A DNA stretch of 64,000 nt, from positions 6,696,001-6,760,000 of the forward strand of contig JAWMAR010000028.1 in assembly GCA_036785375.1 (NCBI GenBank), in the 5' to 3' direction. Below the pieces are notes generated by a model. It worked only from the letters and a program-made list of their open reading frames with translations, was not told the origin of the DNA and ran no database searches. Made by a program: the position numbers and the translations under genes. Shown here piece by piece: positions 1,490 through 64,000 of this stretch. Within the stretch, counting starts at the first letter, position 1, and each line of letters starts with the position of its first letter. Source of the stretch: Leucoraja ocellata (Eukaryota).

Positions 1490-2985
1490 GCCGTCTTAGG
1501 GACATCACGGGATGTACCAGAATCTGAATATACCCACGGACCAGGTCAACCTTCGAAAAGAAGGTAGCGCCCTCCAAATGAGCCGAGAAATCTTGGAGGT
1601 CTGAAGAAGGGTTTCGACCCGAAACGTTGCCTATTTCCTTCGCTCCATAGATGCTGCTGCACCCGCTGAGTCTCTCCAGCATTTTTGTGTACCTACGATT
1701 TTCCTGCATCTGCAGTTCCTTCTTAACCACGAGAAATTTTGGATGTTCGGGACTGGGTACCGATCTGCTGTGGTTACCGCGTTTAAACGCCTGTAATCAT
1801 CGCAAGGTCTCCATCCCCCGGATGCTTTGGAAACCATAAGCAGAGAGGAAGCCCAAGGGCTATCCGACCGCCGGACAATCCCCATGTGTTCCATAAGCTG
1901 GAACTCGTCTCGTGCGATGCGCAGTTTACTGGGCGGGAGGCGGCGCGCACGGGCGTGAACCGGTGGGCCCTCGGTGGGAATGTGGTGGACCACGCCATGA
2001 CGGGTCACGTAGAGCAACCCTGGGAATTCGGTGAGAAAAGCTGCGAAAGGTTGCTGGATCTCAGCTACCTCGTCAAATTGCTGTTGGGGTGTGAACGGAT
2101 TATGCAGCTCAGCAGGGCACAGGTCTGACAACGGAACCATTCGCCCGCCCCTCACATCTACTAACAGGGAGAACGGGCGTAAGATGTCGGCCCCCAATAT
2201 CGGCTGGGCTGGGCAACGGTGAACGGAACGGCTGTTGAATGTTATTGAATGTTATTAGAGGGTTAAATTGTTCATGACATGTATTTTAATTTTAATTGCT
2301 ATTTATTTTTGTAACGAAAACTGAATGGACACTGGTTGAGAAACGTTTTTTTGTTTCCTCTGAGTATGCGAATACTCAGGAAATGACAATAAAGATTTAC
2401 AATTACAATTACAATTACTTCCACCTATATGGGTGGGAATCGAAATTTAAGTCCAGGGTCCGCACGCCGTAAGTTCGAATGTCGCTCCCGTTAACGGCCG
2501 AGAGGAAGGGTCCTACCTTACCGACGCGGGTATCTCAGGCGGTCGGTGGCAGGATGGCGATCATGGACGTAGAGACGTTCGTTCGGGCCGATCGCGCTCA
2601 CCTCTATGGACGATCGGCTGATGCATTTCCCTGAAACGAGCAGAGGCTTCGAGATCTTCGGGCTTCCATACCGTAACAGAGATGCTAATAACACCAACGG
2701 CATCGGCTATACACCTCCGGCTGTGGCGATGCTTCTTCGGCGCTGGGCAGATCCTGACCTTCGTCCCGATGTCTTCTCGGTTGCACCCTAGCCGTGGCAG
2801 TGGGGCGGGTGAAAGAACAAACGTTCCGCCATCTGTGGGTCTACAGTTCGTCGGCTCTCTCTGCGAGGTGCTAGGGATCGCTGAAGTCGGCCCTGGCGAG
2901 CATTAAGCGGACTTATTCCGGCATCTGTTCCCTGCTCGAACAACAGACATGGACGATGCCCGACCATCAGGGCCTACATAGATGA
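1490..2985 (-). mobile_element. CsRn1-type Gypsy gag-pol fragment (no LTRs seen)
   Basis: [62 protein letters not shown] motifs. Interrupted by a hammerhead unit (1598-1729) and a LINE tail (~2235-2417). Confidence 0.85.
1598..1729 (+). ncRNA. Short Penelope-derived unit with putative hammerhead ribozyme core, flanked by 14-bp TSD
   Basis: CTGAAGA-A-GGGTT TC GACCC-GAAAC-GTT at ~1601-1629. Flanks CGAGAAATCTTGGA (1584-1597) and CGAGAAATTTTGGA (1730-1743). Confidence 0.65.
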
Positions 2986-3449
2986 GGTCGATGTAGAGCA
3001 GCTGACACCTAGAGCAGTGGATGCAATAGATGAGGTTGGAGGAGGTGCAGGTGAACCTCTGCCGCACCTGGAAAGACTGCTTGGGTCGAAAATGTTGGAG
3101 GATTATCTGTTGTATGTGATGGCTGGTAGGGTGGAAGGTGAGGACAAGGGGGACTCTGCCCTTGTTACGAGTGGGGGAAAGGGTAGTGAGAGCAGAGCTA
3201 CGGGATATAGAAGAGTATTGTGGTGCGTGGGTCTCAAAAGGAGGCACGAAGTCCAGTGTTTGAGAAGCACCTTTATTGTATTCCTCCCGGTTGAAGGGAA
3301 GACGAAACCAGAGGAAGATGGCACCCAAACCCTGCCTTTTAAACCCTCCGGCTGAGGGCCGCCTCCGGACTGCACCACTCCTGTGCCGAGGGGTTCGGCA
3401 GTATAATGGCACGACCCTTAGGAGCCGCCACAGGACCCCCCCCCCCCCC

Positions 3450-5030
3450 AGAACTAGAGGCACAAAACGCACCGGCGGGCGCACGACCCGGCCGGCCCGC
3501 GTGCGTAAGTCAGCAGATCCCGGGGCTTGCGAGGGCGTAGGTGGAGGGACAGGTCGAGGGACCGGCGGGAGGACAGGTGGAGGGAGTCGTGAGGGGGGGC
3601 GCCCTCGGGGCCGAGGTTGGGCAAACAGCACCGGCTGGTCAATGTCCAGGTGCGCCGGCTTTAAACGGTCAAAAGCTGCCCCCGCCTCGTGGGTCCACTC
3701 AACGCTCTTCTGCTGCCCACCCGCCAGAAGTTGATACAGGGGCCGCATGATGTGGGCCGCGGATGGCACGAAACAATGGTAGAATGCCACCATGCCGACA
3801 AATTCCTGCAGGCCACGCACCGTGCGTGGGCGGGGAAACCGACGGATGGCGTCAACCCTGTCAGGCAGGGGAACCGCGCCTTGCGCAGTCACGCGGTGGC
3901 CGAGAAAGTCAATTTCGTTGACCCCAAAACGGCACTTGTCCAGGTTGATGGCCAAACCATGCTCGCTGAGCCGCTGACAGAGCTGTCGGAGGTGAGCACA
4001 GTGTTCCTGCTGAGAGCGGCTGGCCACCAGGATGTCGTCCAGGTACACGAACACGAATTCGAGGTCGCGACAAACCCCGTCCATGAGGCGCTGAAAGGCC
4101 TGTGCAGCGTTTCTGAGGCCGAACGGCATCCGAGTAAACTCGTAAAGCCCGAATGGCGTGATGATAGCCGTCTTGGGTACGTCATCCGGGTGAACCGGGA
4201 TCTGATTATAACCCCGTACCAGATCCACTTTTGAAAAAAATGTGGCCCCAGTCAAATGGGCCGTGAAGTCCTGGATGTGGGGTACGGGGTATCGATCCGC
4301 TGTTGTTGCAGCGTTCAGCCGTCAGTAATCCCCACAAGGTCGCCAGCCCCCGCTTGACTTAGGGACCATGTGCAGTGGGGACGCCCAAGGGCTGCTCGAA
4401 GTGCGGACGATCCCTAAGGCCTCCATCGTGCGGAATTCCCGCCGTGCCAGACGCAGTTTATCTGGTGGCAGTCGTCGTGCTCGTGCATGGAGTGGTGGGC
4501 CGGTAGTCGGGATATAATGCACCACTCCGTGGCTGGGGGTTGCTGATTGAAACTGCGAAGTGAGAATGTCCGGGAACGCAGCCAAGATCCGTGCGAATCG
4601 GGAGTCCATGGACGCCAGTGGCCGTCCCACCGGTTGATCCAAACGCAACGTGATCGGTCCATCGTAGTGGCGTTGACCAAACGCTGACGCCCGACGTCCA
4701 CCATGAGGGAATGCGCCCGGAGAAAATCGGCCCCGAGCAATGGTTGGGAGAAGTCGGCAATGGTGAAGTTCCATGAGAAATGGCAGGAGCCGAGCACGAT
4801 GGGAACCATGCGCAGTCCATATGTGCGGATGGGGCTGCCGTTCGCTGCGGTGAGGACGGGCCCCCGCTTACCGGAACGAATGTCGGCCAGTGAAGGGGGC
4901 AGGACGCTGAGCTCCGCTCCTGTATCCACGAGGAAGCGGGTCCCGGAGCGCCGATCCCAAGCGAAAAGGCGGTGAATTTGGCCGGCCACCGTGGGGACTA
5001 TTGGCAGCCGGCCCAGGCGTTTCCCGGGAA
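3450..5030 (-). pseudogene. Gypsy pol (protease-RT fused directly to integrase tail)
   Basis: DTGAE protease; RT KTAIITPFGLYEFTRMPFGL..YLDDIL; then AAFDRLKPAHLD..PRPRGRPP..TRAGR. RNase H and integrase core are absent. Confidence 0.85.
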
Positions 5031-5926
5031 TGTGCATGGCTGGTGGCATTGTCGTGCTGCAGCACCCCAGCGCTGATGGAAATAGCACCAGCTCCTTGTG
5101 TTGGTGCTATTTGGAGCTTGCCTGCCCCTGCTGGTGGTGCCTGCAGCTTGCTGGCGCTGGACTGCAGGTGCAGTACCCCTCACTGCCACTGGGGGTAATC
5201 GAGCGGGCCGTCGGGCTGGAGCTGTCACTCCTTCCACAGCTCCCCCGCCCCACCGGAGGAAATCGGGAGCTGCTGGGGTGACGTCATCGGCGTGCCTGCC
5301 GACGGCCAGCGCGTTGACGTCATCAGGGCGCGTCGACCTCAGCGCGGCCCCGTCTCTGCTGACGCCCAGCGCGCTGACGTCATCAGGGCGCGCCATCCAC
5401 AGGGCGTCGCCGCGCCTCCCGAGGGCCCGAAGGTCGGCAAACGAGACGTCGGTGAGCTGCAACCGAATGTAGGCCGGCAGCAGATGCAGGTGGGTATATT
5501 CAAACAACAGGCACGGCGGGTGCCCGTCTAGTCGCGCCACCATCTCCTTTAGGAGGGTAGATGGCCGCCGGTCGCCCAGGCCCCCCATATGCAGGATCCT
5601 ACCTGCCCGCTCTTTACACGCTCCATCCTACTCAGTCCGTAAATCTGGAGCAGGAGCTCTTTCAGGCCGAGATATTTATTATTGTCCGGGGGGTCTGCGA
5701 GGAAGTCCGTGACTTCTTCAACCGCATCCTGGTCGAGGGCTCCCACCAGGTAATAGAAAAGGGTGGCATCGACCGTGATGCCCCGCAGGTTGAACTGGGC
5801 CTCCGCCTGCTGGAACCAGATGAGCGGCCGGGTGGTCCAGAAGTTGGGCAGCTTAACAGCGACTGCGTCCAGAGCCCGGGCCGGGCTGGCGTGTGAGGAG
5901 GTAGGGCTTTCTCGTCTCTCCATCAT
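4998..5926 (-). pseudogene. Gypsy gag (frameshifted)
   Basis: ORFs 5549-5926 and 4998-5588: KLPNFW..WFQQAEAQF, LGDRRPSTLL..M, CYFHQRWG..A.QC..PC zinc knuckle. Confidence 0.85.
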
Positions 5927-8491
5927 GACGCCAATGGAGCGTCGGGGTCACCAATGTGGTGCATGGGTCTCAAAAGGAGGCATGAAGTCCAGTTTTTGAG
6001 AAGCACCTTTATTGTATTCCTCCCGGTTGAAGGGAAGACGAAACCAGAGGAAGATGGCACCCAAACCCTGCCTTTTAAACCCTCCGGCTGAGGGCCGCCT
6101 CTGGACTGCACCATTCCTGTGCCGAGGGGTTCGGCAGTATAATGGCACGACCCTTAGGAGCTGCCACAGTCTCATCTATAGTCGAAGAGGGGAACCCCTG
6201 TTCCCTAAAGAATGAGGACATCTCCGATGGCCTGGTGTGGAACACCTCATCCTGTGTGCAGATGCGGCGTGGACGGAGGAATTGGCAGTAGGGGATAGAG
6301 TCCTTACAGGAAGCAGGGTGGGAAGAAGTGTAGTCCAGATAGCCATGGGAGTCAGTGGCTTGGTAGTAGATGTCGGTCAGTAGTCTGTTACCTGTGATGG
6401 AGATAGTGAGGTCTAGAAATGGTAGGGAGATGTTGGAAATGGTCCAGGTGAATTTGAGTGCCTTATGGAAGTTACTGGTGGAATGGATGTGCAGGAGGTA
6501 GCACCAATGCAGTCGTCGATGTAGCGGAGGGAGAGTTCGGGGATAGGGCAACGGTACGCCTCGAACAAGGATTGCTCGACGTACCCTACAAAGGGGCAGG
6601 TATAGCTGGGGCCCATGCGCATGCCCTAGCTAAGCTTTGGATTTGGAGGAAATGGAAAGAGTCAAATGAAAAGTTGTTGAGGGGTCACCAAAGAGGTAGA
6701 TAATAGTTCGGCACTGTTCTCTAGTTGTGGTAGGATGATTGTTACCTAATTACAGCTGGGAAGAAACTGTGCCTGAATCTGGAGGTGTGCATTTCACACT
6801 TCAATACCTTTTGTCTGATGGGAGAGGGGAGAAGAGGGAATGGCCAATATGCGACTCATCCTTGATTATGCTGCTAACCTTGCCGAGGCAGCATGAGGTA
6901 TAAATGAAGTAAATAGAAGGGAGGCTGGTTTGTGTGATGGTCTGGGCTGTGTTCACAGTTTGCTGCAATTTCTGGCGGTCTTAGATGGAGCTGTTCACAA
7001 ACCAAGCTGTGTTGCATCCTGATAAAATGGTGCATCTGTGGAAGTTGTGACTGTTGTAGGGGACATGCCAAACTTCTTAAGCGTTCTAAAGAAGTTGAGA
7101 CGTTGGTGTACTTTCTTGGGTGTTACTTCAATATGGGTGGTCCAGGAGAAGTTGTTGGTGATACGTCATGAGTAGACTTAAAGGAGAAGTTCAACACCAT
7201 ATTTGAAAACATTGGAAAATTGCGAGATGGTCAAGTCAAGATAGACCCATATGTGCCTTTAGCACAACCAACGAGAAGAACTCCATTTGGAATAAGAAAA
7301 GGTTGAGGCTCGATCCAAGAGCTCATTGAACAGGATATCAATGAACCTGTTGAAGAATCGACCCCATAGGTCAGTGCAGTTGTAGTATTAACTAAACCAA
7401 ACAGAGAGATAAGGCTTTGCCTGGACAAGTAAATGTGGCGAAAATACGAGAGAGAGACATCCAAAACCTACTGTTGAAGGTCCTCCAAGAGCTACCTACA
7501 AGCAAAGTATTTTCAAATATGACCTAAAGTGGGTTTATCATCAGTTCGATGCAGACCCAGAATCAAGGACAATAAGTACTTTTGTCACACATTGTGGACT
7601 CTACTGCATAATATATAATTATTCATAGTTGCACACGTGAGGAACATGATGAGAGACTCAGGCAGACACTAGTACGATTGAAGGCTGCTGGATTGACTGT
7701 GAATGCGGACAAATGTTTGCTTGGTATTTCAGAATTGGTGTTTATGGGCCACAAGGTGACCAGTAATGGCATCAATCCAGCTGAGGGCAAAATTAAACCT
7801 GTGGTAGATGTTCGAGATCCAATACGTTAGGAGTTTCCTTGGTTTAGTGATTTTTTTGTGCAAGATTTATTCCAAATAGCTACTGTGGCAGAGCCACTGA
7901 GGAGGTTGACAAGGAAAAATGTGCTCTTTGTGTTTGGTCAAGAACAAAGATGCATTTCAGATGTTGAAATAGAGTTTGATGAGTGCCTATGCGTTGGGAT
8001 ACTATGATCCAAAGGCATCAACCCAATTTATTGCAGATGCAAGCGCAGTGGGACTAGGAGCCGTACTTGTACTTGCATGCAGGACAGTCGAGAGTCATAG
8101 CTTATGCAAGCAGGTAATTGACGGAAGTAGAAATAAGATACTCCTAGACAAAAGGAGGCTTTGGTGTGGGCATGTGAACACTTTCATGCATACCTGTATG
8201 TCATTGGTATTGAGTTGTGGTCAGACCATAAACCGAAGGAGAAACTATACACCCCTCGATCCAAACCGTGTGCCCGGATTGAAAGATGGATGCTTAGACT
8301 TCAACAGTACAAATACAGAGTGATCCACATCGCTTGAAAAAACAATATAGCTGACTCAACCAGATTGCTGAAGGAAGACAAGCTGCAAGGATCTACATTG
8401 GAGACAGAATCAGAAGCAGAATTGTTTGTTAGATGTGTTGCAGTACACCAAACCAAGAGCAACGGGAACAAGGGAAATAGAAGAAGACATC

Positions 8492-9409
8492 TCCAAGTTT
8501 GCGGATGACACATAGCTGGATGGCAGTGTGAGCTGCAAGGAGGATGCTATGAGGCTGCAGGGTGACTTGGATAGGTTGGGTGAGTGGACAGGTGCAGTAT
8601 AATGTGGATAAATGTGAAGTGATCCACTTTGGTGGCAAGAATAGGGAGGCAGATTATTATCTGAATGGTGTCAGATTAGTAAAAGTGAAGGTGCAACGAG
8701 ACTTGTGTGTGCTTGTACATCACTGAAAGTAAGCATGCAGGTACAGCAGGCAGTGAAGAAAGTTAATGACATGTCCTTCATTGCGAGAGGATTGGAGTTT
8801 AGGAGCGAGGTCCTACTGCAGTTGTACAGGGCCCTGGTGAGACCGCATCTGGAGTATTGTGTGCAATTTTGATCTCCGAATTTGAGGAAGGACATTATTG
8901 TTATTGAGGGAGTGCAACATCGGTTCACAAGGTTAATTCCACAGATGGAGAGACTGACATATAATGAAAGCATTATATTCTGGGTTTGTATTCACTGGAA
9001 TTTAGAAGGATGAGAGGATATCTTTAGAAACATATACAATTCTTAAAGGATTAGACGTTCTTGATGCAAGTAAAATGTTCCCGGTGTTGGGGGAGCCCAG
9101 AACCAGGTGGTGCAGTTTAAGAATATGGGGCAGGCCATTTAGGACTGAGATCAGGAAAAAATGTTTTCACCCAGAGAGTTGTGAATCTGTGGAATTCCAT
9201 GCCACAGAAGGCAGTGGAGGCTAATTCACTGGATGATTTCAACAGAGTTAGATTTAGCTCTTAGGGCTGAAGGAATCAAGAGATATCGGGAAAAAGCAGG
9301 AACGGGGTACTGATTTTAGATGATCAGCCATGATCATATTGAGTGGCGGAGCTGGCTCGAAGGGCCGAATGGCCTACTCCTGCACCTATTTTTTTTGCTA
9401 TGTTCTATG
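8492..9409 (+). mobile_element. CR1 LINE 3' fragment inserted in the Mag-type Gypsy
   Basis: KFADDT, RLQGDLDRL, KCEVIHFG, LYRALVRPHLEYCVQF motifs and CR1 3' UTR GGCCGAATGGCCTACTCCTGCACCTA...CTATG. Confidence 0.9.
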
Positions 9410-12139: not shown

Positions 12140-13340
12140 AGCAGTATAGGACTACAGTAGACTCCTTCATTACCACATGTACTTCACCATTAGAAAATGC
12201 ATGCATGAGTGCTGGAACAGCGAGATATCACTCCTGGATGAGCCTAACGCATTCTACGCATGTTTCGAAAGGGAAAATACTGATGTGCCTTCTTGGGGCC
12301 CCATCGACTTGGTTGGTATTATAATTTCAGTCACCGAGGCCGATATCAGACAGGCTGAACTCTCAGAAAGCATCTGGAACTAATGGTGTAACTGGTCGCG
12401 TTCTCAAAACCTAATGAATATAGGAGGTAGATCGATCATTTGATTGAATGGGCCTGAACAACAACTTTGCTCTGAATGTCCTTAAGACCAAGGATTTTAG
12501 AAGAAGAAGGCCGAGGAACAACGAACCTGTCTTCGTCGACAGGTCCAAAAATAGACACAAAAAGCTGGAGAAACCCAGCAGGTCAGGCAACATCTCTGGG
12601 GAAATGAAATAGGTGGCATTTCAGGTCAAGATCCATCTGCAGATTGAGAGTCAGGAGAAAGGGAATATATAGATGATGAAAGGGAGAGATATACAACAAA
12701 TGAATGAAAGATTTGCAAACAAGTAACGATGATCAAGGAAGGATGGAGCCCACAATGTCACAAGACAGTGAAACTCATCAGGACGACAATGAAACTGGTA
12801 CACGTCATCGGCAGGTCGGAGGGAGCCAACAACTTCAAGTTCCTGGACATGCCAATCTCTGAAAATCTGTCCTGGGCCCAACACATTTATGCTATCATAA
12901 TGAAAGCTCATTAACACCTTGTTAGCTCAATGTAAAAAAAATAAAGAAATTAATTGTTCTGAAAGGGGTAGTAGGGAGAATACATGCCAGTTTCATTGGT
13001 GGGCTGGTGGTGGAAAGTAGGGTCAGATTCAAATTTCTGGCTGTTAACATCTCCTATGAACCGTCCAGGTACTCAACCTGGTCCACAATGAACAAAGCCT
13101 TCCCCTCAATCAAAGCATCTACATGAAGGCTGCATTTTTCATCCAGGATCACTGCCATCCATGCTATGTCTTCCAACTGCGACAATCAGACAGGATGTGC
13201 AGAATCACTAAGGTTTGGGAACAACTACTTTCCTGCACCCATCAATTTCTTGAACCAACCCAAATCCTAGCTCAGTGAAGGATTACCTCATGCACTACCA
13301 TGAAATTGTTCTTCTCATTGTTTTTGCACTGATATCTTGT
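12140..13340 (+). mobile_element. Degraded Rex1/Babar fragments (with hammerhead-type unit ~12550-12650)
   Basis: LLDEPNAFYACFE, NFALNVLKTK, FKFLDMPISENLSW..H motifs, all broken. Confidence 0.6.
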
Positions 13341-13354
13341 TGCAGTTTTTGTCA

Positions 13355-14725: not shown

Positions 14726-15271
14726 ATCACTTAGTCAGTATCAAAACAACATCTCTGGTATAGAGGCAGCAGCTTTACCTACTACGTCACAGTGCCACTC
14801 CAAATCCCACTTTGGAGATAGGGTTTTTTCAGATGGACAAATTTTTCTCAGAGGAGTCTTCCATTGTCTCCTTAATTGCCTGCTTCCAGTGGTCTGAGCA
14901 ACTTTCTGAATCAGTTTTGATTCTATTTGTCCAGAAGCACAATGCATATTATCTTCATTACATAACAATTCCAAGGAATACAAACTCAGGAGCACCAGCC
15001 TTGATGTAACCAATCAGACGGCACTTCTACTCAACATTCATGAGGTAAACGTTGCCCACAAATTGTTGCTGCTGTACCACACTGTCCTTCAAAAATATAA
15101 ATTCACGTCAAGACCCTGAAAAACACGGATTACTTTCCCTAATTGACCTCTGATTGCTGCAGTCTGAGGTTCTCACCTGCTTTAAGAGGGCTTCAACAAC
15201 ACTGGTGCCCAAGAAGAGTAAGGTGACATGCTTCAATGGGACTGGTGGCACTAAGTGTTGAAATGCTTTGT

Positions 15272-16128
15272 GAAGGTAGACAAAGATGCTTGAGAAACTC
15301 AGCGGGTGAGGCAGCATCTATGGAGCGAAGGAATAGGTGATGTTTTGGGTCGAGACCCTTCTTCAGACATGGGGTGGGAGGCGGGAAGAAGAAAGGAAGA
15401 GGCAGAGACAGTAGGCTGTGGGAGAGCTGGGAAGGAGGGAGAAAGCAAGGACTACCTGAAATTGGAGAAGTCAATGTTCATACCGTTGGGGTCTAAACTA
15501 CCCAAGCAAAATATGAGGTATTGCTCCATCAATTTGCGGTGGGACTCACTCTAGCCGTGGAGGAGGCCCAGGACAGAAAGGTTGTATTCGGAATGGGAGG
15601 TGGAGTTGATGTGCTGAGCCACAGGAAGATCGGGTTGGTTAATACGAACTGTGCGGAGGTGTTGGGCGATGCGATCGCCAAGCCTGCATTTGGTCTCACC
15701 GATGTTGAGCAGTTGACACCTGGAGCAGCAGATGCAATAGATGAGGTTGGAGGAGGTGCAGGTGAACCTCTGCCTCACCTGGAAAGACTGCTTGGGTCCT
15801 TGGATGGGGTCGAGAGGGGAGGTAAAGCGACAAAGGTAGCATTTCCTGTGGTTGCAAGGGAAAGAACCAGGGGAGGAGGTGGTTTGTGTGGGAAGAGATA
15901 AATTGACCAAGGAGTTACGGATGGAGAAAGTGAGGTCTAGAAGTGGTAGGGAGATGTTGGAAATAGTCCAGGTGAATTTGAGTGCCGGATGGTAGTGATG
16001 AAATGGATGAAGTCAGTGAGTTCTGGATGGATGCAGGAGGTTGCACCAATGCAGTCGTCAAGATAGCGGAGGTACAAAGAAGCAGGCATAGCTAAGGCGC
16101 ATGCTCGTGCCCATAGCTACTCCTTTGA
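15272..16128 (-). mobile_element. Penelope-like element, internally deleted
   Basis: GSFPCNHRKCYLC, FTCTSSNLIYCICCSRCQLLNIGETKCRLGDR (GIY-YIG), RT remnant RYLDDCIG. Hammerhead-like core CTGAAGAAGGGTCTCGACCCAAAAC at ~15342-15366. Confidence 0.9.
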
Positions 16129-16129
16129 G

Positions 16130-16560
16130 ATGTTCGTTATGGCACATTTCAACTCCTACATCAACAACGACCTGAGCCAAATGTACCACCACATTAGGTC
16201 AATGGAGGATGCAATCTCGCTGGCTCTCCATTCTGCACTGGACCACTTGGTCAGTAAAACATATATGAGAGGCTGTTGTTCACGGACTACAGCTCGGCAT
16301 TCAACACCACCATCCCCTTCAAACTGGTTACCAAGCTCGGGAACTGGGTCTCTGCATTCCTCTACAACTGAATCCTCAACAGCAGAACTCAATCAGTACG
16401 AATTGGCAGCAACACTTCCAACACTATGGAACATAATTCTACTCCATCTTTAAATTTGCTGAGGGTGCATATTGACCGGTTGGTCAGAAGCATATTGGGA
16501 GGTAGGAACACCCAGGAATGAAGAAGATTACAAAAAGTGGTGAACTGCCCAGTCCATAAC
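16130..16560 (+). mobile_element. Rex1/Babar RT fragment
   Basis: [27 protein letters not shown] motifs. Confidence 0.75.
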
Positions 16561-16599
16561 CACCCATTCATTCAGGTATGTTGGGGACGCCACATAATT

Positions 16600-48034: not shown

Positions 48035-48292
48035 CCACCCACCGTTCCACACATACATACATACGCACATCCACACACACACATCCATCCATATGCACAC
48101 TTCCATGCATGCAAACACACACATACATGCACACATAAATCTGCACACACACACACACATCCACACATCCATTCACATGCAGACATACATGTACACATCC
48201 AAACATACATGCACACATACATCCATCCACACGTACATACACACTTACATCCACAGATACACGTTTGAAAGGCATACACAGACACACATACG
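48035..48292. repeat. Degenerate (CA)n/(CATA)n microsatellite
   Basis: Directly visible low-complexity tract. Confidence 0.9.
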
Positions 48293-48897
48293 AACTAGAG
48301 ATAAACAATGCAACACTTTTAGGGTTCTTTTAGGTCAAAGGTAATAGCCCTCATTTGCAAAGGCACCATCAGGGAGGAGGGGGGTCTATAACATAAATAT
48401 ACTGCCCCAGTCCCACTATGGCCGTTACCCCCACTCCCCACTTTGGCAGTCAGCGGGGTTCAGTAAATGAGGAAACCTAGAGGATCTGTCCTGACCCTTT
48501 AATTAGGCAGGTTCGTGAGCCCTTAAAACCTGGGACATCTGCTGTCTCATTTAATTTCCTATTAAAGCGACTGGAACATGCCTGCCTGGCACTGCCCCGG
48601 TACCACTATGGCTGTCACCCCCACTCTGCACACTGGCAGTCAGTGGGGTTCAGTAAAGGGAGGAACCCACAAGAACTGCCCTAACCCATTAATTAGGCTG
48701 GTTCAGGAGCAGGACCTCTGCGACAGTGTCATTAAAAAAACACACTCACAATCATATTATTTTTATATAATATAATTATACTTAATTATATATGATAACA
48801 TTCATATTAACAGGTTATATATTATATTGGTATAATAATATATAGTTTAAATGGACTGCAACACGGAAATAGGCTGCCCATGGTGTAATACGGGCAT

Positions 48898-48916
48898 TGG
48901 CCACTAGATGGCGCTT
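48898..48916 (+). promoter_or_regulatory. CTCF-like binding motif inside Academ-like subterminal region
   Basis: TGGCCACTAGATGGCGCTT matches the CTCF core CCASYAGRKGGCRS. Confidence 0.45.
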
Positions 48917-51304
48917 ATTTTCCCGATCTCATTTTCTAATTAGTTTAATTAATTAATGTGCAACTTTTGGCAATGACGAGTTATGACATCCTTCTCAATT
49001 ATATTTCATCTAAATCTGTGGAAAATATCATGTCGTTTGGTGACTTGGGTCACGAAAACCTATTTCTAGACGCATTTTTGATGCTCGGCCCACAGCCTAA
49101 AGGGTTCTGGCCCAAAACATCACCTATTCATTTTCCCTAGAGATGATGCCAGATCCACTGAGTTACTCCAGCATTTTGTGTCTATGTTCTGTAAACCAGT
49201 ATCTGTAGTTCCTTCCTACAGCCAATGCATCAAGGCAGCCTGCAAAAGCAGTAAGAACGTAATCATCAGTTTTCCTCCTGCCCATCTGTGGAAGAATGTA
49301 TGGTTCTCGCATTGGCTTAGTTAGCCATCATAACTTACAAAATTATAGTGAAAGTAAGTAATTTTCCATTCTAAGCATCTGCCTATGAAGAGGAAGACAA
49401 AAACGAACATGGATAGCATATTTCTGACAAGATTATTCAAGTTTAAAATGTATTAACTAAATTGGAAGAATGATATCTGCAAATCACTGCATATGGAACC
49501 GTGATATCTATACAGTATGATCTGAAGAATATGTAATTGACCTGGATTTTGCAAGGCGCAGTTGGTGAAATTTCCTAGAGTTAATATCAACTACTTTGGA
49601 ATTTCTATATTATGCAATGAAAAATAATCGTCAACTTGGCTGCCACCACTTCAAAGCACAACTCCCCTTGGTGTTTTGCATGTTGCGAAGATCTCTCATC
49701 ACGTAGAGATGGAAACTGCACAAACATCGTGCCAAGAATCTGATGCCAAGTATGCATCTGCATTCATGCTATTGGTAGTCACTGATAATGGTGGGAAGGA
49801 GAATGGCTAGTGGCAGGGCTGTTGTACATCCCAGCTTCAATCTTTGGAGTACAAGGAACTGTAGATGCTGATTTACAACAAAAAAAGCACAAAATGCTGG
49901 AGCACCTCAGTGGGCCAACCCAACCCAGTTTCTCCCAGCCCAAAATCAATACCAACCGATGCTCTCCAGAGATGTTACCTGAGTTTCTGTAGCACTTTGT
50001 TTCTTTTTTCAATTTTTAAAATTAGTTTTAAATATTTTAAATTAATTTTAGTGTAATGTAAATGAATGTAATTAGCAAATGTAATTGAAATAACGGGATT
50101 TAAGTACGCAACATTGGTGTTTTCAGATGTCAATACATGGATTGTTTCCATTTGAGTATGTTTAACCTATTAATGGACTACTAATGCAAATTCTGGACAA
50201 AAAAAGCTGAAATATTAACCTTGCTTCTCTCTCCAGAAATCTTGCATGGTACCTATGTCTAAGATATTCTTGATTTATTTCAGAATTACAGCATCTGCAA
50301 TAATTTGCTTTTTGAATATTTTGATAATTTTGTCTTTGCGCTGATCTGGCGATCAGATGATGTAAGTGATCTGATCCTTAGGATATAATGTGGTATCGTC
50401 TTCTACAGACAATTCAGCATCGACCCGAAACATCGCACATTCCTTCTCTCCAGAGATGCCGCCTGTCCCGCTGAGTTACTCCAGCATTTTGTGTCTGCAC
50501 TGGATAGTTGAGATCTTTAAGCTTTTTTTTTGCAAGAAAGGATAAACACAAACTTGCCTTTTGCTTGAGAAAAACGAAATATCAAATAACTTTTTAAAAA
50601 TCTTCCAAAGCAGAAATAAACATATTATGATTCTTCTTTGCACAAGATACTGTATCCAATATAATTGTTTATAAAAACATTGTAGGACTGAGAGGTTTTC
50701 AAATTTGACCATAATGTCTCAATGCATTTGCAATCTGCATCTGGTCTCAAATTTTGCAGATAATTATACATATTATTTTTGACCATTTCATGGACAATGA
50801 AAGCTGATGTTCCCAGGGACAGTACAAATGGGTCAGGTCAGAAGTAATTATCCAATGTGCATTATGTCTCTTTACAGTGCAGTGTTTATAAAGTGCTCAT
50901 GGCAACACACGGGAATGTATGCACTTTGGGACAGCCTATAAACTGAAAAACTCATTAAATCTATAATCTCATGTAACCTTTACAAATGTTCCCAGGACAT
51001 ACAGTAAAGTCATTTGGAGCTATTTCTGAGTCATGAATAATAAGTGATATTTGCAGGGCACGGAAGTAACTTCAATTCAAAATATATTTAAAGTTAAATA
51101 AACACATTGGCAGTTTATTATAAACTGAAAGTTGTCAGCCAACTGGCGTAATGGAAGTCATTGTTAACTTTTAAAATTCCATGTTAATCTCCTTTAATTA
51201 AAGTAGCTGTTTCTAGTCTCAGAATCTAGTCTCAGCACAGATGGCAGGATGTAGGCACATACCTCAGTTATCCAAATACCTCAATTATTCACAAAAATGA
51301 CTTA

Positions 51305-51520
51305 GACAAAAGACAATAGGTGTAGGAGTAGGCCATTTGATCCCTCGAGCCAGCACCACCATTCAATGTGATCATGGCTCATCATCCACAATCAGTACCC
51401 CATTCCTGCCTTCTCCCCATATCCCCTGACTCCGCTATTTTTAAGAGCCCTATCTAGCTCTCCCTTGAAAGCATCCAGAGAACCGGCCTCCACCGCCTTC
51501 TGAGGCAGAGAATTCCGCAG
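51305..51520 (-). mobile_element. CR1 3' end
   Basis: Reverse complement of CR1 3' UTR (AGGAGTAGGCCATT..GATCATGGCT..GGCAGAGAATTCC). Confidence 0.8.
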
Positions 51521-52451
51521 ATAAATCAGACTTGTCTGATTTAGTTGTGCTGAAGTCAGAACCTGCTGAATGGAAAATATTGACTAAAATGGGGTTACAT
51601 TGTACTTGTTTAGGCACAGATTTGCTACTCTAGGACCAGAAGAAAATGCATATTTCCATCTGAATATGCGCTATCATCTATATTCAGTAAAGAGAGAGAT
51701 GTATATTTTACTGGTGCTCCAAATGAATTTAAGAATTTGCCCCTCACATTGGTTTGTAGTGAAGGAATGAAAACCTAGGGTCACACAGACTTACAGCTTT
51801 TGATTGTGGTTTATAATAATGAAAAATGTTGATGTGGTCCATAAAATGGGATATTTAAGTGAAAAAGGTTAGTTATTTAGTTATTAGGCTTTTGACCATG
51901 CCTGAGGCTTTGCTTCTGTTTGTGGTGTTTTTGATGTTTCTTTATTTTACATGTCTTTTCCTACTATTTCTTTTGATTGTTATTTTTGGTGTGTATTAAC
52001 TTTTTTGTCAATGATTAGTGATGTACAGCACTTTGTTGCAGCTATGTTTGTTTTTAAAGTGCTCTATAAATACAATTATTATTATTATTTATTATTATTA
52101 TTGTCATTGCCATGAATATATCAGCATAGATAATAATGTAATCCTCAATTTATGAACATACAATTTCATCTTGTAAACCATCAAGTTCCTCCTATTCACT
52201 GACAACAGTGCAAGAGTTTATCCAGAATAATCCACGAAAGAGGCACTTATAATCTCAATAGTCATTGTCTGAAGAAGGCTCGACCCGAAACGGCACCCAT
52301 TCCTTCTATCCTGAGATGCTGCTATCCCGCTGAGTTACTCCAGCATTTTGTGCTATCTTCAATAATCACAGTCATGATCTTCCAGTTCTTTAACACATTG
52401 TAATCACTTTCATTGCTATCACATCTTTTATTTTTGGTAATTGCATATCTT

Positions 52452-55370
52452 TTCAGATTCAGATTCAGATTCAATTTTAATTGTCATTGTCAGTGTACAG
52501 TACAGAGACAACGAAATGCATTTAGCATCTCCCTGGAAGAGCGACATAGCAAATGATTTGAATAAATAATAATAAGTGTCCGGGGAGGGGGTGATTGGCA
52601 GTCACTGAGGTACGTTGTTGAGTAGAGTGACAGCCGCCGGGAAGAAGCTGTTCCTGGACCTGCTGGTTCGGCAACGGAGAGGCCTGTAGCGCCTCCCGGA
52701 TGGTAGGGGGTTAAACAGTCCATGGTTGGGGTGCGAGCAGTCCTTGGCGATGCTGAGCGCCCTCCGCAGACAACGCTTGCTTTGAACAGACTCAATGGAG
52801 GGGAGCGAGGAACCGGTGATGCGTTGAGCAATTTTCACCACCCTCTGCAATGCCTTCCGGTCGGAGACAGAGCAGTTGCCATACCATACTGTGATGCAGT
52901 TGGTAAGGATACTCTCGATGGTGCAGCGGTAGAAGTTCACCAGGATCTGAGGAGATAGATGGACCTTCTTCAGTCTCCTCAGGAAGAAGAGACGCTGGTG
53001 AGCCTTCTTGATCAGAGTTGAGGTATTGTGGGTCCAAGAGAGGTCATTGGAGATGTTGACTCCCAGGAACCTGAAGCTAGAAACACGTTCCACCTCCGTC
53101 CCGTTAATGTGGATGGGGGTGTGCGTGCCGCCTCTGGATTTCCTGAAGTCTACAATGAGCTCCTTGGTCTTCTTGGAGTTAAGGGCCAGGTTGTTGTCAG
53201 CGCACCATGCTGCTAAGTGCTGGACCTCCTCCCTGTAGGCCAACTCATCGTTGTTGCTGATGAGGCCAATCACCGTTGTATCATCTGCATACTTGATGAT
53301 GGTGTTAGTACCATGTACAGGTGTGCAGTCATAGGTGAAGAGGGAGTAGAGGAGGGGGCTCAGCACACAGCCCTGTGGAACGCCGGTGTTCAGGGTGAGG
53401 GTTGAAGAGGTGTGCTTGTCTAACCTAACAGACTGGGGTCTATTGGTTAGAAAGTCCAGTATCCAGTTGCAGAGGGAGGGGTTGATGCCCAGGTTACCGA
53501 GTTTGGTGATCAGTTTTGATGGTATAATAGTGTTGAATGCTGAGCTGTAATCGATGAACAGCATTCTTACGTAAGTGTCTCAGTTGTCGAGGTGGGAGAG
53601 GGCGGAGTGAAGTGCCGTTGAGATGGCATCCTCCGTACTCCTGTTCTTGTGGTAGGCGAACTGATAGGGATCCAGTGTGGGGGGTAGGCAGCTTTTGAGG
53701 TGTGCCAGGACCAGCCTCTCGAAGCACTTGGTGATGATGGGGGTAAGTGCAACTGGGCGGAAGTCGTTGAGGCTTGCCGCAGTGGAGTGTTTTGGCACTG
53801 GCACGATGGAGGTGGTTTTAAGGCACGTGGGGACAACTGTTTGGGCAAGTGACAGGTTGAAGATGTCAGTCCAGATGTCTGTCAGCTGCGCAGCACAGGC
53901 CCTGAGCACGCGCCCGGGGATGCCGTCAGGGCCAGCAGCTTTACGTGCATTAGTCCTACTCAGTGCCACGTATATGTCGTAGGGGGTGAGTGTGAGGGGT
54001 TGGTGATCAGCAGGGAGTACAGCCTTGATGGCTGTCTCTAGATTGTCCCTGTCAAAGCGGCCATAGAAGTGATTAAGCTCCTCAAGGAAGGAGGCGTCGC
54101 TGGATGTGGGGGTGGTGTTGGAGGGTCTGTAGTCCGTGATGGCCTGGATGCCTTGCCACATGTGTCGGGGGTCGGAGTTGTTGTTGAAGTGCTCCTCAAT
54201 CCTGAGCTTATGGCAGTGCTTGGCCTTCCTGATGCCCCTCTTCAGGTTAGCCCTGGCTGAACTGTAGGCTCGAGCATCGCCTGACCTGAAAGCGGTGTCC
54301 CGTGCTTTCAGCAGTAGCCTGACCTCGTTGTTCATCCATGGCTTATGATTCGGGTATATGGTCACCTGTTTGAGGGAGGTGACACTGTTGATGGTGGAGT
54401 TTATAAAGTCCAGAACAGAGGATGTGTAGGAATCAATGTACGTGTGGGAGTCAAGGGTGGCCTGGGCTGCAAACGCCTTCTAGTCAGTGTTTCCAAAACA
54501 CTGCTGAAGTGTGAAGTCCGCTTCCTCTGACCAGACTTTAACTGTCCTCACAGTTGGTTTAACCCGTCTGATGAGTGGGGAGTACTTAGGGAGCAGGAAC
54601 AATGAGACGTGATCAGACTGACCAAGGTGGGGGCGGGGATGGCTTTGTAAGCTTCAGCCATGTTGGTGTAGACTTTGTCCAGTGTCTTGTCTACTCTAGT
54701 GGGGAAGGATACATGTTGGTGGAATTTGGGGAGTACAGTCTTCAGGTTAGAGTGATTGAAGTCACCCGCAACAATGAAGGCTGCCTCGGGGTTGTGCGTC
54801 TGTTGATTGCTAATGGCAGTATGCAGCTCTTTCATTGCAAGCTTGGCATTAGCATCAGGAGGGATATAGGCTGCAGTCACAACAGTGGAGGTGAACTCTC
54901 TGGGCAGATAGAACGGTCTGCATCTAACCAAGAAGAACTCAAGGTTAGCTGAGCAGTGACTCTCGATGATGGTGGAGTCCGTGCACCATACTTTGTTTAC
55001 ATAAATGCACAGACCCCCACCTCTGGTCTTACCGGAGTCTGATGTCCTGTCCGCTCGGAGTAAATGACACCCCGATAGCTGGATGGTGCTGTCAGGAACG
55101 TCAGTGTTGAGCCAAGTTTCCGTGAAGATCAGGATGTTGCAGTCCTTGATCCAGTTGTGGGAGGTGATCCTTAGCCGGAGTTCATCCATTTTGTTTGCCA
55201 GTGAGCGCACGTTGGCGAGGAAAAGGCTAGGAATCGCTACCCTGTGTGGGGCTAGCTCTAACCTGGCCTTTAACCCACCTCTGGGTCCCCGGTGGTGTTT
55301 TCGTACGCTTCGCCGTCTGTTGGTGCTTCTGGTGGGCCGAGCTGGCTTGGTGCGCGCTGGTGTTTTTTGA
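52452..55370 (-). mobile_element. Near full-length Rex1/Babar LINE (APE endonuclease + RT), frameshifted
   Basis: ORFs 54548-55432 (LANVRSL, FTETWL, AGDFNH), 53580-54365 (KAAGPDG, DFRPVALT) and 52602-53564 ([23 protein letters not shown]). 3' GACAATTAA and (TCTGAA)n tail at 52452-52475. Confidence 0.95.
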
Positions 55371-56529
55371 TGATCAAGGTAAAAGCCTAGGACCCTTGGG
55401 CTTGAACTTAAATCAAGCAACCAAGTGTGCACTAAAATATTGATGATGTGACTACATCACTGATGATGTGTTCAGGAGCATCTATCGATGTATTTGTATC
55501 AATTGAAAATATCAAATTAAAAAGTGCCAGTTCTTTCATCGGCTTCATAGTGGATTTACGATCATCTGCCTGGTCAATGAGCTTTGACTAGAACATGATG
55601 TACTCAACTATGGGTATTGGTTGCTTTATGAAAGCCATCAACAGTATGATTCAGACTTGAACAACATTATTCTTTAGCGTCAAGCACTTAATTAAAGGCT
55701 CTGCAGCACTTTTACCAGAGTACAATAAATGATCTGTTTAGTACTTTAGGATGCTCAGTTAAATAATATTCCAGATTGCTCTCTCCTTACATCTTTGCAA
55801 TATACTCTTTATCATTATCATTGTTGTAATATCTGCAGTAGCAATTTTGACACCTGAGTTAGGAATGTGTATGTTCCATTAATGGATGTTGAACTGAACA
55901 CTCACCGAATTGAATCAGCAAACCACTTACAGCATGTGAAATATCAGCAGAATGAATGTTTTTTATAATCGCAACTTGTCACTTACTGCACACTTTTTTT
56001 TACCAGTATGCTTCACAGGCTACGCACATTTAATTCCAGTACAGATGGTTGAAAAATATACTTTCATCTCCGTCTCTCAGATGTTATTCGTATTTGTCTC
56101 CTGACATTTGGCTGTATTGAAATCAATGGAATCAAATGAGAGGTGATTATAGTCAGTTATGGAGTCATACAGCATGAAAACCAGCCCTTCAGCCCAACTG
56201 ATCCACACCAACCAAAATACTCCTGTTCTGATGAAGGGTCACATGCCTGAAAAGTTGCCTGTTTCTATTTCCACAGTTACTGCCTGACCTAGGTTTTTCT
56301 TTTCCTTTCTGTTTTTGCTTCAGATTGCCTGCATCTCCAGGGTTTTTATATCTTCACTGACTGTAGTTGGTGAGAAATACTTATGCACGCATTTACTGTA
56401 GCTCCATGAGCAAAGCCAATTTCCCCACATTTTAGATTTATTGCACTAACTCTCTGCTAGGTATAAGAATGATCTCTAATTTAGAATATCGTTTTCTATA
56501 GCTGTTTGTGAATCCAGTAGTTGTACCTA

Positions 56530-56782
56530 AGATAGACACAATATGCTGGAGTAACTCGGCGGGATTGGCAGCAACCTAGGATAGAAGGAATGGGTGATGT
56601 TTCCGTTTGAGACCCTTCTTCAGACTAGAGTGAAGTCACGAGTCACTTCACTAGTCCGAAGAAGGGTCTCGACCGGAAAAGTCACCTATTCCTTCTCTCC
56701 AGAGATGCTGCCTTTCCCGCTGAGTTACTGCAGCATTTGTGTCTATCTTTAGTTTAAACCAGCATCTGCAGTTCCTTCGTGC
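56530..56782. repeat. Inverted pair of Penelope-derived hammerhead units
   Basis: Minus copy ~56530-56626 and plus copy ~56652-56782, with a self-complementary spacer AGTGAAGT..ACTTCACT. Confidence 0.75.
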
Positions 56783-57377
56783 ACAGTAGTTGTACCCATT
56801 GCCCTTTCTTTGCTTGTGACGCAGAAGAATTTCCACCGACATGTTTGCAATTATGCTGAGATTTATATCCCTCAGAATCTGCAGACTGTTACTAGCAAGA
56901 AACATATAAACAACTAAAAGTTTATATGGATGCATAAAGAGGAAAAGATTAGTAGAAGTTAATGTGGCTGCCTTACAGACAAGACAAGGGAAATTCTAAT
57001 TAAAACCAGAAAGCACTAGGGATACCCTGAAGGCCAGGCAGCTTTCTGTGAGGAAAGACATATTCATATTCAGGATGAATGGACTTCATCAGATCTGCAG
57101 AAGTGAGATAACATGTTTTAAGTTGCAGAGAGCCAAAGGACTGGAGAGAGAAAAAGAAATAACTACCATGGTAGAAACCAAGCTTGTCTCAGTGGTACAA
57201 TGCTTTCAGAGCCATTTTAGTTTGTAGATGAAATTGGGCAGTTGCAAAATAAATATCAAAAGATCACGCTGGAACTGCGATGGGTTAAACACAGCAGTTG
57301 CTGGAAAGATGAAACGAGACTGCTGGAAACAGGCGGCATCTACACAGAGCAAAATATTGAGTTAAGGTAGACGGTTA

Positions 57378-60340: not shown

Positions 60341-61659
60341 TCAGCCAATGGCTTATTAATGAAAGGTAACAATAATGGAACTGTTGGGGTGGGAGATTGG
60401 AACCTTCATGTGGTCCGCCCTGTTTCGACGAATACAATCAACCTGGCGTGCACTACCAAATAAGATCAAATATAAGAAGTTGTCCTACAACTTTAGGCTG
60501 TGCACGCCATAAACAAGAAGAAGAAGATGGAACTGTTCAGGTCAACATGAATAAATTAATGGGAAATTGTTTTTGCCAGATATATTCTGCTCAATGTTTT
60601 TTGAGGTTGTAGCTAGCAGAATACCAAAGAGTGAGCCAGTTGATGTAGAAACAAGGAACGGCAGATGCTGTCTTACCAAGGAAAGACACAAAATGCTGGA
60701 GTACACAGCGGGCCAGGCAGTATCCCTGGAGTATGCAGTATGGACTTGTTTTTTTTTCTAATTGTGCTTTGCATTGTCCTTTTCTATTGCAGTTTCTTTT
60801 CATTTGTCTGTCTTGCACAATGTTCATTTGTAGTTACCTTATCATTTATATTTTTGTGTGTTTGTCTATGTGCCTGTGATGATGCGAGAAGTAACATGTT
60901 TATTGTAGCTCTATCTCATTGTGCTTGAGCATATGACAATAAACTCGACTTGATTTGACTTGACTGGAATTGATTTTAGTGCTTACTTTAGACAATTAGG
61001 ATAGCTTTAGAATTATAAATCTATACCCGCTTCTCTAAATTGCTGCATTATTGCACTAAGATGGTTTGTGTCAGCATTATTTGTGTGAAACTGTAAAACC
61101 TATGTATTTGGAGTTCATGGCATGTGTAAAGGTTAAAGCCTACACCACTGTGGCCTCTTTATCTACACGTAGGGTAATTCCACATCTGTGCAACATTAGC
61201 TGCCTGAAGTACACATTAAAAGCAAACATTTCAATTAACTCTTAACAAAATTGTTTTCAAAACAGTTAACGACTGCACAAATGAACGTCAAACAGAGTAT
61301 TACAGTAACTAGACTGTTGTGTTTTCCAATAAACAATATGGTTCAAGGAAAATACTTCAGCCAAAACATACCACCCTCCTCTATTTTACACCCTCCTCCA
61401 TTTTCCAGTCACATTTCCTTTTGGAAGTTAGTAAGAAATGTTTTCAAAATGTATCTAATTTTTGTAATCAGATACCTACAACATTATGTGAACAGGCCAG
61501 ATTTTTAGTCTACTAAAATGTAGTTTTGTAGTTCCCCTGTGCAAATTCCCGATATAAATATTAATGCGATACTAAGATACTAATTAACAATACATGGAAT
61601 TATGCTTTCTGAATGTTAAAAGTATAATCTTTTCACCAATCTCATGATTGTATCAAGCA

Positions 61660-62563: not shown

Positions 62564-63014
62564 TGCACGCATTACAATTTGAAGGAGAAAAAAAGACAGA
62601 AATATTGAATTGATAATTTTTCAAATTAGGCAAACAATTTACAGCCTTCGAATATTATAATATATTTTTTCAACGTTTAATTCAATGTTTTTTTGAGATG
62701 TTATATGGTGGAACAGCACCTCTAAAATGTTAAAATACATTATTTTGTTTTCCGACCACATGATTATTGTGCACGATTATTATAAACACTTATGTTTATT
62801 AATCATGTGTACTGGCACCTTTTAGTCCACAAAGAAAACACTGTCCTAAACTGTTTATAATGAATTAAGTACTTTTGAACCGGTCACTGGAAATGGCAGT
62901 TAATTGAGTTCTATAAGCTGCAAACTACACTAAAATCAAGTTGAATGGTTAGGTAGCCTCTCAGGCATGTAGCCTCCTCCTACCTGCTACCTCTTCCTGT
63001 TTTTTTTTAAATTT

Positions 63015-63180
63015 TATGGCAAGATATTATTTAGTGATGTTGTATAAGGAATACCTCTTGGGCAGTAAACCAGCTGGAACTCACCTGCTCTTATTTGAAG
63101 TGTTATGAGATCATTTACATCCATGCAAGGAGTAAAGCCAGGATTTCAATTTGACATTTCATTTGAAAAACACCACCTCT
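63015..63180 (-). mobile_element. Deu-domain SINE fragment
   Basis: Minus strand GGATGTAAATGATCTCAT..AAGAGCAGGTGAGTT..ACAACATCACTAAA resembles the DeuSINE central domain. Confidence 0.55.
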
Positions 63181-64000
63181 ATCAGTATGAAACCCAAAGT
63201 GCTGGAATAACTCAGCGGGTCAGGCAGCATCTCTGGAGAACATGGATAGGTGACAATTTGGGTCTGGCCCCTCCTTCAGGCAGCACCTATCCATGTTCCA
63301 TGAGTTGCTCCAGCACTTTGTGTCTTTTTCTTGTCAACCAACATCTGCAGATACTTTCATCTCCAGAGATTCTGCCTGACCTGCTGAGTTACTCAGGCAC
63401 TGTGTCTTTTTTTCTCAAAAAAATGCTGCCTGACCTGCTGAGTTACACCAACACTCTCCCTCTTTCTGTGTTTAAGGACACCTTTTTCAACAGGGAGAGA
63501 CTGAGTTCCTTGCTTTTATCTCTGACAGTATGCCATTCGATGTAGTTTATGCACTGACATTTCTGTTCCTAGAATCCTGACCACTACAAGTAAATGTTTT
63601 TTTTTTATCCCACAGCCATGATTGCTATTAAAGAAAACATCATTTATATGTTTCTTATATCTCATATTCTATGGAGGTGAGAGGGAGGCTAGGTTTAAAG
63701 GAGATGCGCGGGGAACATCTTTTACACCAACTACCAGAACATTCTCAGTAATCCTGTCCCCTCAATTATTTGCCGATAACCCCATCTCTCTCACATGCCC
63801 ATCAGCGCTCTCCCCCCGTTCTACATTGGGTACAATTTATCGTAGCTAGTAAACCTTTCAGTACCACTTTGTGATTTTGGACGATACCAGAACAGTCAAG
63901 GGAGCACTGGGAGAACGCATAAACTTTGTACAGATGGCAACTAAGATCAGAATTGAATCTGGGCCACTGGAGGCCTGTGGCAGCAACACTATTGAATTAT

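Follow-up and report, generated by a model that had tools for sequence, protein, structure and literature searches.

Short hammerhead-bearing repeats in a 64-kb stretch of Leucoraja ocellata DNA are tips of Penelope-like elements that mostly begin just before the ribozyme motif

Dispersed single minimal hammerhead motifs, together with pairs on opposite strands, were described in 2014 as "probably related to truncated PLEs", that is, to Penelope-like elements (PMC4209133). The role of the hammerhead in PLEs is given as an open question, or its cleavage as dispensable in vitro (PMC8557442, PMC11167929). Published insertions of endonuclease-positive (EN+) PLEs comprise an inverted 5'-truncated copy, an optional tail of 30-40 bp, a target-site duplication (TSD) of 8-10 bp and a junction palindrome (PMC8557442, PMC3846280). 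In Poseidon of Anolis carolinensis the tail is the stretch between two internal start sites of the reverse transcriptase (RT), and uncleaved RNA is the main template (PMC11167929). In D. virilis Penelope the 3' end of an intron maps to the 5' end of helix I (PMC4209133), and this intron follows the transcription start at a distance of 46 nt (PMC2377424). Tandem units are the defining feature of retrozymes (PMC7229834; bioRxiv 10.64898/2026.07.22.740005), which canonically carry a type I hammerhead with a 6-bp helix I and loop contacts (PMC7229834); they have been linked to pseudo-long terminal repeats (pLTRs), with some found in one chondrichthyan and with minimal motifs admitted too (bioRxiv 10.64898/2026.07.22.740005). 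The present work concerns a family of short hammerhead-bearing repeats in a 64,000-nt stretch (the window, in whose coordinates all positions are given) of Leucoraja ocellata contig JAWMAR010000028.1 (assembly GCA_036785375.1, positions 6,696,001 to 6,760,000, forward strand). The units are tips (94-136 nt) of the pLTR of PLEs of the Neptune/Nematis type, and are mostly ordinary short dead copies of the PLE tip rather than tandem retrozymes. The part of interest is their clustered 5' end: most arms begin just before the ribozyme motif, not at its cut site.

The window has a G+C content of 45.5% and is rich in transposon remains. An iterated nhmmer profile, seeded on a PLE-linked copy, matched it 30 times at E<1, 26 times at E<0.001 and 24 times at E<1e-6, and gave 0 matches in the reversed window. 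A preliminary description of this DNA had listed 16 hammerhead sites, all of which proved to belong to this one family, either as profile matches or, at 45660, as half of a split copy. The listed sites were all real, including the split copy at 45660/49103, in which a 3.4-kb insert with terminal inverted repeats interrupts the core, and the copy at 18120, where CUGANGA is nonetheless lost; about ten pieces had been overlooked (12643-, 22816+, 36880-, 49917-/49937+, 50420+, 60733-, 63284+ and two more up to 63455). A unit length of ~100-250 bp was proposed there; single units measure 94-136 nt, and those of ~160-260 nt are head-to-head pairs. Public contigs were aligned to 15150-16100 at 80% likeness in four runs (X1, X15, X22 and X23, with 117,097 contigs in X1 and 113,395 in X15), from which the best 24 of 2430 loose-end rows are considered, together with 15 of the 287 joints; contigs allow neither RNA ends nor expression to be read. 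At this likeness the units are high-copy, as had been proposed. Pattern scans detected no further copies in metagenome, viral or prokaryotic contigs. The copies in the window that lie apart from PLE coding remnants are as follows.

1598-1729, + strand: tailed solo unit of 132 nt with complete core, lying in a Gypsy RT remnant; 14-bp TSD (13/14) at 1584-1597 and 1730-1743
33733-33865, + strand: solo unit with tail, complete core; TSD 10/10, or 12/13 if extended (start 33733, otherwise 33730)
37569-37670, - strand: tailless solo unit with complete core and 10 additional letters at its 5' end; perfect 15-bp TSD
52265-52358, + strand: tailless solo unit whose core is broken at U16.1; weak 10-bp TSD (9/10, score within chance range)
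56528-56783, no single strand: head-to-head pair forming one insertion, both arms from the hammerhead edge; its 30-nt centre is nearly palindromic, only the + arm has a tail, and the 13-bp TSD is perfect
45640-49224, + strand: tailed unit behind a 17-nt 3' piece in inverted orientation; 9-bp TSD; the insert 45669-49099 later split the core
49846-50007, no single strand: decayed head-to-head pair in which only the - arm has a tail; 10-bp TSD (9/10)
63188-63455, no single strand: compound insertion of a - arm with core, a + arm from the cut site (63284-63285) with most of the tail, and two more partial 3' pieces; TSD not found
12553-12643, - strand: sister-subfamily copy with pyrimidine-rich upstream DNA (77% in 60 nt), probably a longer remnant; profile match
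18020-18145, - strand: decayed unit with tail, starting inside the core; profile match
18730-18857, - strand: unit with tail, starting at the core edge; TSD not found
22816-22880, + strand: short 3' piece without core; profile match
28346-28412, - strand: copy from an old subfamily, with a CUGAUGA core and A-U as the first pair of stem II; profile match and alignment
34180-34255, + strand: copy with complete core, 3' part lost; profile match and descriptor
36795-36880, - strand: copy starting inside stem II; profile match
42090-42156, + strand: old subfamily copy; profile match
50420-50496, + strand: copy starting inside stem II; profile match
56227-56290, + strand: old subfamily copy; profile match
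60650-60733, - strand: 3' piece with tail, without core; profile match

The window contains three PLE coding remnants, two of them with a family copy attached.

15263-16140, - strand: 5'-truncated, internally deleted PLE remnant with RT end, C-x4-C-x2-C linker, GIY-YIG end, 88-nt pyrimidine-rich spacer, core at 15366-15339 (G12 lost) and a 3' end without tail
656-938, - strand: PLE 3' piece with the last GIY-YIG codons, a GT...AG-bounded pyrimidine-rich spacer of 104 nt and a core at 735-708, its 3' part cut off
2951-6681, - strand: third PLE remnant, from RT to the GIY-YIG start, split by the Gypsy element 3219-6169; no hammerhead attached

On the sense strand, RT, linker, GIY-YIG and stop are followed by a pyrimidine-rich spacer of 88-104 nt with GT and AG at its ends, then by the hammerhead and ~60 or ~100 nt more; the AG of the spacer is mutated in the copy at 15367. 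The motif had been placed in the terminal repeats of two Penelope elements, and it does lie there in sense orientation, 88-104 nt downstream of the GIY-YIG stop, but both elements are 5'-truncated remnants. The 656-938 piece is 82% identical to 15289-15556. RT and GIY-YIG remnants were found by tblastn with protein relatives, which themselves match RVT_1 and GIY-YIG, while Pfam gave no match on the window fragments alone. The linker CX2-5CxxC is present in the open reading frame (ORF) at 15551-16012 and in 46 of 51 long relatives; its C-x4-C-x2-C form indicates the Neptune or Nematis type as defined in PMC8557442. The GIY-YIG fragment at 15554-16012 (- strand) is closest to skate and ray proteins (8 matches among 369 candidates), with 77% identity to a Leucoraja erinacea entry. 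PLE protein remnants lie within 700 nt upstream in only 2 of 26 family copies. The long PLE relatives, used as queries, found nothing in viral contigs, and one bacterial match, L001 (E 2e-4), was weak, probably spurious and left unused. An ATG at +50/51 opens a frame of 26 codons in two copies of one subfamily; the frame is closed in two others and does not match the N-termini of the 51 long relatives, and so this ATG is not established as an ORF start.

Judged by its letters, the motif that these units carry is the minimal type I hammerhead known from PLE terminal repeats. Positions are given in the hammerhead numbering scheme. The core elements CUGANGA, GAAA and UH, in type I order, are kept in the majority sequence of 15-17 copies. 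A strict minimal-hammerhead descriptor found five sites with core and stem II, against a mean of 0.21 in 100 shuffles, and four complete motifs, against 0.02 (maximum 1 in 100 shuffles); the latter, at 1601+, 33737+, 34181+ and 37659-, are the only copies with the full core. Structure statistics were taken from an alignment of 17 copies, arms starting inside the unit being excluded. Stem II consists of 4 bp and a tetraloop, with an unpaired base before 10.1, and 83% of its cells are paired, far above the 13-43% obtained when the whole structure was slid as a control. The palindromic 15.2-16.2 pair, without loop 3, is CG in five copies, UG in four and broken in 8 of 17, the breaks being mostly CpG decay. 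Helix I is only 2 bp in most copies, as had been cautioned, with 68% of its cells paired; it has one double change and reaches 4 bp only in 1601, where the outer pair is formed with target DNA. These copies share with the PLE minimal hammerheads the arrangement CUGANGA...GAAA-NN-UH without loop 3, the palindromic 15.2-16.2, the extra base after A9, the G10.1-C11.1 pair (11 of 17 window copies), the thousands of dispersed single motifs and the close opposite-strand pairs, and resemble D. virilis Penelope in an apparent 2-bp helix I whose edge falls at what looks like an intron end (PMC4209133). Helix II differs, with 4 bp and a tetraloop here against 7-8 bp in Schistosoma, and the sections of that paper used here include no cartilaginous fish and no mention of a fixed 5' start of dispersed copies (PMC4209133). 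A literature search that took in few subscription papers, and neither Repbase nor Dfam, found no description of this skate family or of a 5' boundary at helix I.

The variation in stem II had been offered as compensatory, a claim that fails as a statistical signal: its score of 0.189, against 0.181 ± 0.023, was reached by 192 of 500 shuffles, and the three pairs with double changes were matched by 293 of 500, in an alignment of 17 copies whose power is low. Most of this variation is attributable to subfamily difference and CpG decay. Likewise, RNAalifold gave no consensus pair among the family copies, single-copy folds were unremarkable in 8 of 9 cases (z -1.42 to 0.22, with one at -2.32), and comparison with Rfam, which had been proposed as a check, yielded no hammerhead model match at E<=1 in the window. 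Two mir-297 Rfam matches (E<=1) fell on a CA-rich repeat and are regarded as chance. A covariance model of the hammerhead recovered its 15 training copies and two known decayed ones, and no second hammerhead family. At CpG columns 40 of 136 cells differ from the majority, 30 of them by C>T or G>A, as compared with 16 of 170 cells in non-CpG core columns and 215 of 1092 in other columns. The core would appear to be kept in master elements and to decay in their copies; most stubs are probably unable to cleave, and the ribozyme may be relevant, if at all, in the master elements. In 33733-33865, 1598-1729 and 18730-18857 the tail end can base-pair both with the core, which is rich in purines, and with the stem II 5' strand; pairing with the core is the best duplex in two of four long copies and the second best in one, which provides a lead only. 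Such pairing would block the hammerhead fold and bring both ends of the unit together.

The family had been labelled "retrozyme-like", which implies a cycle in which dimers of tandem units cleave themselves, the products circularise and rolling-circle reverse transcription copies them, solo copies being the monomer offspring. Like non-LTR retrozymes, the units are short, non-coding, pLTR-related and apparently PLE-enzyme-dependent, with a type I hammerhead (PMC7229834; bioRxiv 10.64898/2026.07.22.740005), and retrozymes both derive from pLTRs and occur in one sampled chondrichthyan (bioRxiv 10.64898/2026.07.22.740005). One head-to-tail joint of 97 nt was present among the contig joints listed (three contigs in X15 and one in X23), and the copies at 33737 and 34181 lie on one strand, 444 nt apart. 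Those two copies, however, belong to different subfamilies and are separated by a unique spacer, and 33737 has a TSD of its own. The motif occurs in 0 of 52 TRF tandem-repeat rows of the window, and the spacing of cores likewise reveals no array. Nor are the units like retrozymes in their minimal rather than canonical core, with its 2-bp helix I and lack of an Rfam match, or in their ends: copies start ~30 nt before the cut site and none is permuted, there being no monomer that runs from the cut site and ends in the core (PMC7229834; bioRxiv 10.64898/2026.07.22.740005). The label is therefore not retained, and a retrozyme origin is considered highly improbable.

The flanks and ends of the units instead resemble those left by PLE insertion. 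TSDs were scored with a fixed geometry on 16 single copies, compound insertions and arms starting inside the unit being left out; three of the 16 scored at least 9, as against 1 of 240 mismatched flank pairs, and the clear TSDs measure 10-15 bp. Three of the four compound insertions have duplications of 13/13, 9/9 and 9/10 (flanks chosen by eye, no null), and TSDs across the family span 9-15 bp. The borders of 1598-1729 are confirmed by the interrupted Gypsy RT, the halves of which align to another Gypsy copy with only the duplicated stretch between them. TSD-defined 3' ends lie at +129, +129 and +91, with a weak fourth at +90; there are thus two 3' ends ~38 nt apart, and the stretch between them is the optional tail. 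Four insertions are head-to-head, and in all four the tail is on one arm only. The 5' truncation, inverted truncated copy, tail, TSD and junction palindrome of published EN+ PLE insertion units are all seen here, although most products in the window are of minimal size (94-256 bp), with 5' ends gathered at the edge of the hammerhead and TSDs of up to 15 bp (PMC8557442, PMC3846280). As in Poseidon, two 3' ends ~100-130 nt behind the hammerhead bracket the tail, and the template appears to be uncleaved RNA; unlike Poseidon, the skate element belongs to the Neptune/Nematis linker clade and has no ATG at stem II (its first ATG is at +50/51) (PMC11167929).

Sixteen arms reach the hammerhead. Of these, 12 end in a 19-nt window at the helix I edge, two carry on into ORF remnants and another two into pyrimidine-rich DNA. 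When a memoryless model is fitted to the 10 arms ending within the unit, it predicts 1.5 such ends rather than 12 (P 5e-10, a crude test); restricted to the eight arms whose 5' junction a TSD or adjoining arm defines, the test gives P 3e-5 at the fitted rate. Random 5' truncation would create no special boundary, and the apparent start at the core would then be an artefact of a fast-changing, low-complexity upstream tract that hides homology. In keeping with this, the upstream DNA is known for one subfamily only, the copies at 12643 and perhaps 28412 continue into pyrimidine-rich DNA, some loose-end consensus letters match the upstream of the PLE copy, and the 10 arms mentioned do start inside the unit. 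Yet in the eight defined arms the TSD or adjoining inverted arm fixes the 5' junction 2-15 nt from helix I, and the upstream flanks of solo copies are 33-58% pyrimidine in 13 of 17, hence not pyrimidine-rich, and match one another only through inverted family pieces. Random truncation is accordingly very unlikely as the whole explanation.

The same edge stands out in the public contigs. The largest loose-end peak among the rows listed is at 15366-15368, with 474+641+2199 contigs in X1 and 491+701+2534 in X15, and runs X22 and X23 have 54 and 51 contigs at 15368 among the rows listed. Loose letters at 15366-15368 are near random (agreement 0.32-0.39) and the loose parts long (median 71-242 nt), whereas loose ends within the repeat at 15332-15333 (X1, X15, X23) have a median loose part of 17-37 nt. 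Summed depth in X1 is 11.7-18.0 million over core and tail and 0.76-1.07 million in the next two bins, with an ORF maximum of 5.0 million. No loose-end peak at the cut site (15339/15338) is present among the 24 of 2430 rows listed. Wherever the upstream DNA of a subfamily is visible, the edge is YAG (736 and the arms of 56528-56783) or one change away from it (12643, 15367), and the 88-104 nt that lead up to it have the form GT...pyrimidine tract...AG. The edge resembles a 3' splice site, the situation known from D. virilis Penelope. Its TCAGT also resembles an initiator. A similar initiator-like TCACT is found in a rotifer pLTR (PMC3846280). As a separate observation, contig joints from 15347, 15367, 15368, 15459 and 15490 all lead to 15557-15559, with sides of only 21-26 nt, and the PLE piece 656-938 starts at the position matching 15557-15559; this site, near the GIY-YIG end, is a possible target or break hot spot. 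Many contig joints also link the helix I edge (15368) to 15333-15336, a few bases 3' of the cut site, and one inverted arm in the window starts at the cut site (63284); such edge-to-cut-site joints could be due to snap-back on short internal complementarity or to copies from cleaved RNA.

Taken as a whole, the units are probably the shortest insertion products of autonomous EN+ PLEs of the Neptune/Nematis linker type. The RT/GIY-YIG protein would bind the element RNA just 3' of the hammerhead and nick the target, producing the observed TSDs of 9-15 bp, as in the enzymology of Anolis Poseidon (PMC11167929). Internal RT start at ~+90 or ~+129 from the helix I edge would then give copies without or with the ~38-nt tail, the ends being observed and the cause suggested by Poseidon (PMC11167929). 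RT next reads through the uncleaved hammerhead, as the intact cores in DNA copies show. The cDNA would usually end 2-15 nt 5' of the core, where the boundary is observed, and would join the target or snap back to form a head-to-head arm, as proposed for other PLEs (PMC3846280). Inserted copies would thereafter decay neutrally, as the CpG pattern suggests. The stubs thus indicate that inserted copies derive from uncleaved RNA and that copying stops at the 5' edge of the ribozyme. Given this scheme, there is about an even chance that the boundary reflects a discrete RNA 5' end at the YAG before helix I, set by a transcription start or by 3'-splice-site-like processing. An alternative almost as probable is a barrier to RT or exonuclease, either at the C-rich pyrimidine tract or at a protein-bound fold, because no spliced joint is among those listed and no bounded copy has an upstream exon piece.

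Several observations weigh against this scheme of autonomous by-products. A significant TSD is lacking in 13 of the 16 single copies, and for the eight defined arms P rises to 0.07 at a tripled stopping rate. The drop in contig depth across the edge is more than tenfold but only 2.3- to 3.6-fold relative to the best ORF bin, and summed contig depth is not copy number. The loose-end peak also collects long sister-subfamily copies whose upstream differs, and its ends pile up at 15368 because the reference copy mismatches at 15369-15370. No spliced joint (~15368 to 15455) occurs among the 15 of 287 joints listed, and no TSD-defined copy has an exon-1-like piece upstream; splicing is unsupported on both grounds. 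In place of a full-length ORF between two pLTRs, the window holds broken PLE remnants only. In addition, the tree of 17 copies is almost unresolved, with 1 of 14 inner branches starred, and the pair 1600/37660 forms its own clade (100/98 support) without a long copy in the window, which may leave room for separate short masters.

Such masters correspond to the preliminary description's non-autonomous family mobilised by PLE enzymes, of which the insertion by PLE machinery is upheld by TSDs, tail and inverted arms, but not the existence of a separate family. Here a short core-and-tail master, resembling a short interspersed element (SINE), would be transcribed by itself and mobilised in trans by PLE protein. 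A fixed 5' start, TSDs and very high abundance would all be expected of it, and the 1600/37660 subfamily, which has no ORF-linked copy in the window, is abundant among the contig loose ends. D. virilis Penelope has an internal promoter (PMC2377424), so that a stub beginning at the transcription start could carry one, and non-autonomous PLE derivatives are known in Chlamydomonas (PMC8557442). The solo copy 33736, however, shares 94% identity with the PLE-linked copy 15367, more than the 91% between the two PLE-linked copies themselves, and a boundary common to subfamilies 55-85% apart would call for repeated origin; since the start is shared in this way, autonomous by-products fit at least as well. 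Neither an A box nor a B box was present in 10 of 10 strands scanned, and no tRNA gene or tRNA head was found. Independent SINE-like families are thus unlikely. A somewhat better, though still doubtful, prospect is that the fixed start marks where a discrete RNA of ~100-135 nt truly begins, this RNA being made at the YAG and comprising the core, the protein-binding region and the tail. If so, the stubs would represent full-length cDNAs of a dedicated mini-RNA that arises anew, again and again, as a SINE-like product built into the PLE cycle; the hammerhead fold would act as a 5' boundary or protein platform, not as scissors; and the genomic copies would together form a very large natural archive of the two PLE template ends. 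For annotation, the family is best entered as PLE ends, not as retrozymes or SINEs, and is otherwise an ordinary repeat.

Other mobile elements in the window include two Gypsy-type LTR elements with broken pol frames, at 3219-6169 (LTRs 97% identical) and 22901-27348 (95%), the first of which is nested in a PLE remnant. A non-LTR element at 52602-55456 (- strand) is near full length, its APE endonuclease and RT frames broken by stops. The insert at 45669-49099 has terminal inverted repeats starting TAG and a 3-bp duplication, and the same end recurs at 939 (939-1170); in its TAG ends and 3-bp duplication it resembles Academ DNA transposons. Another dispersed repeat family is present at 8998-9397, 39940-40540 and 51309-51522, in both orientations, with copies that are 78-81% identical.

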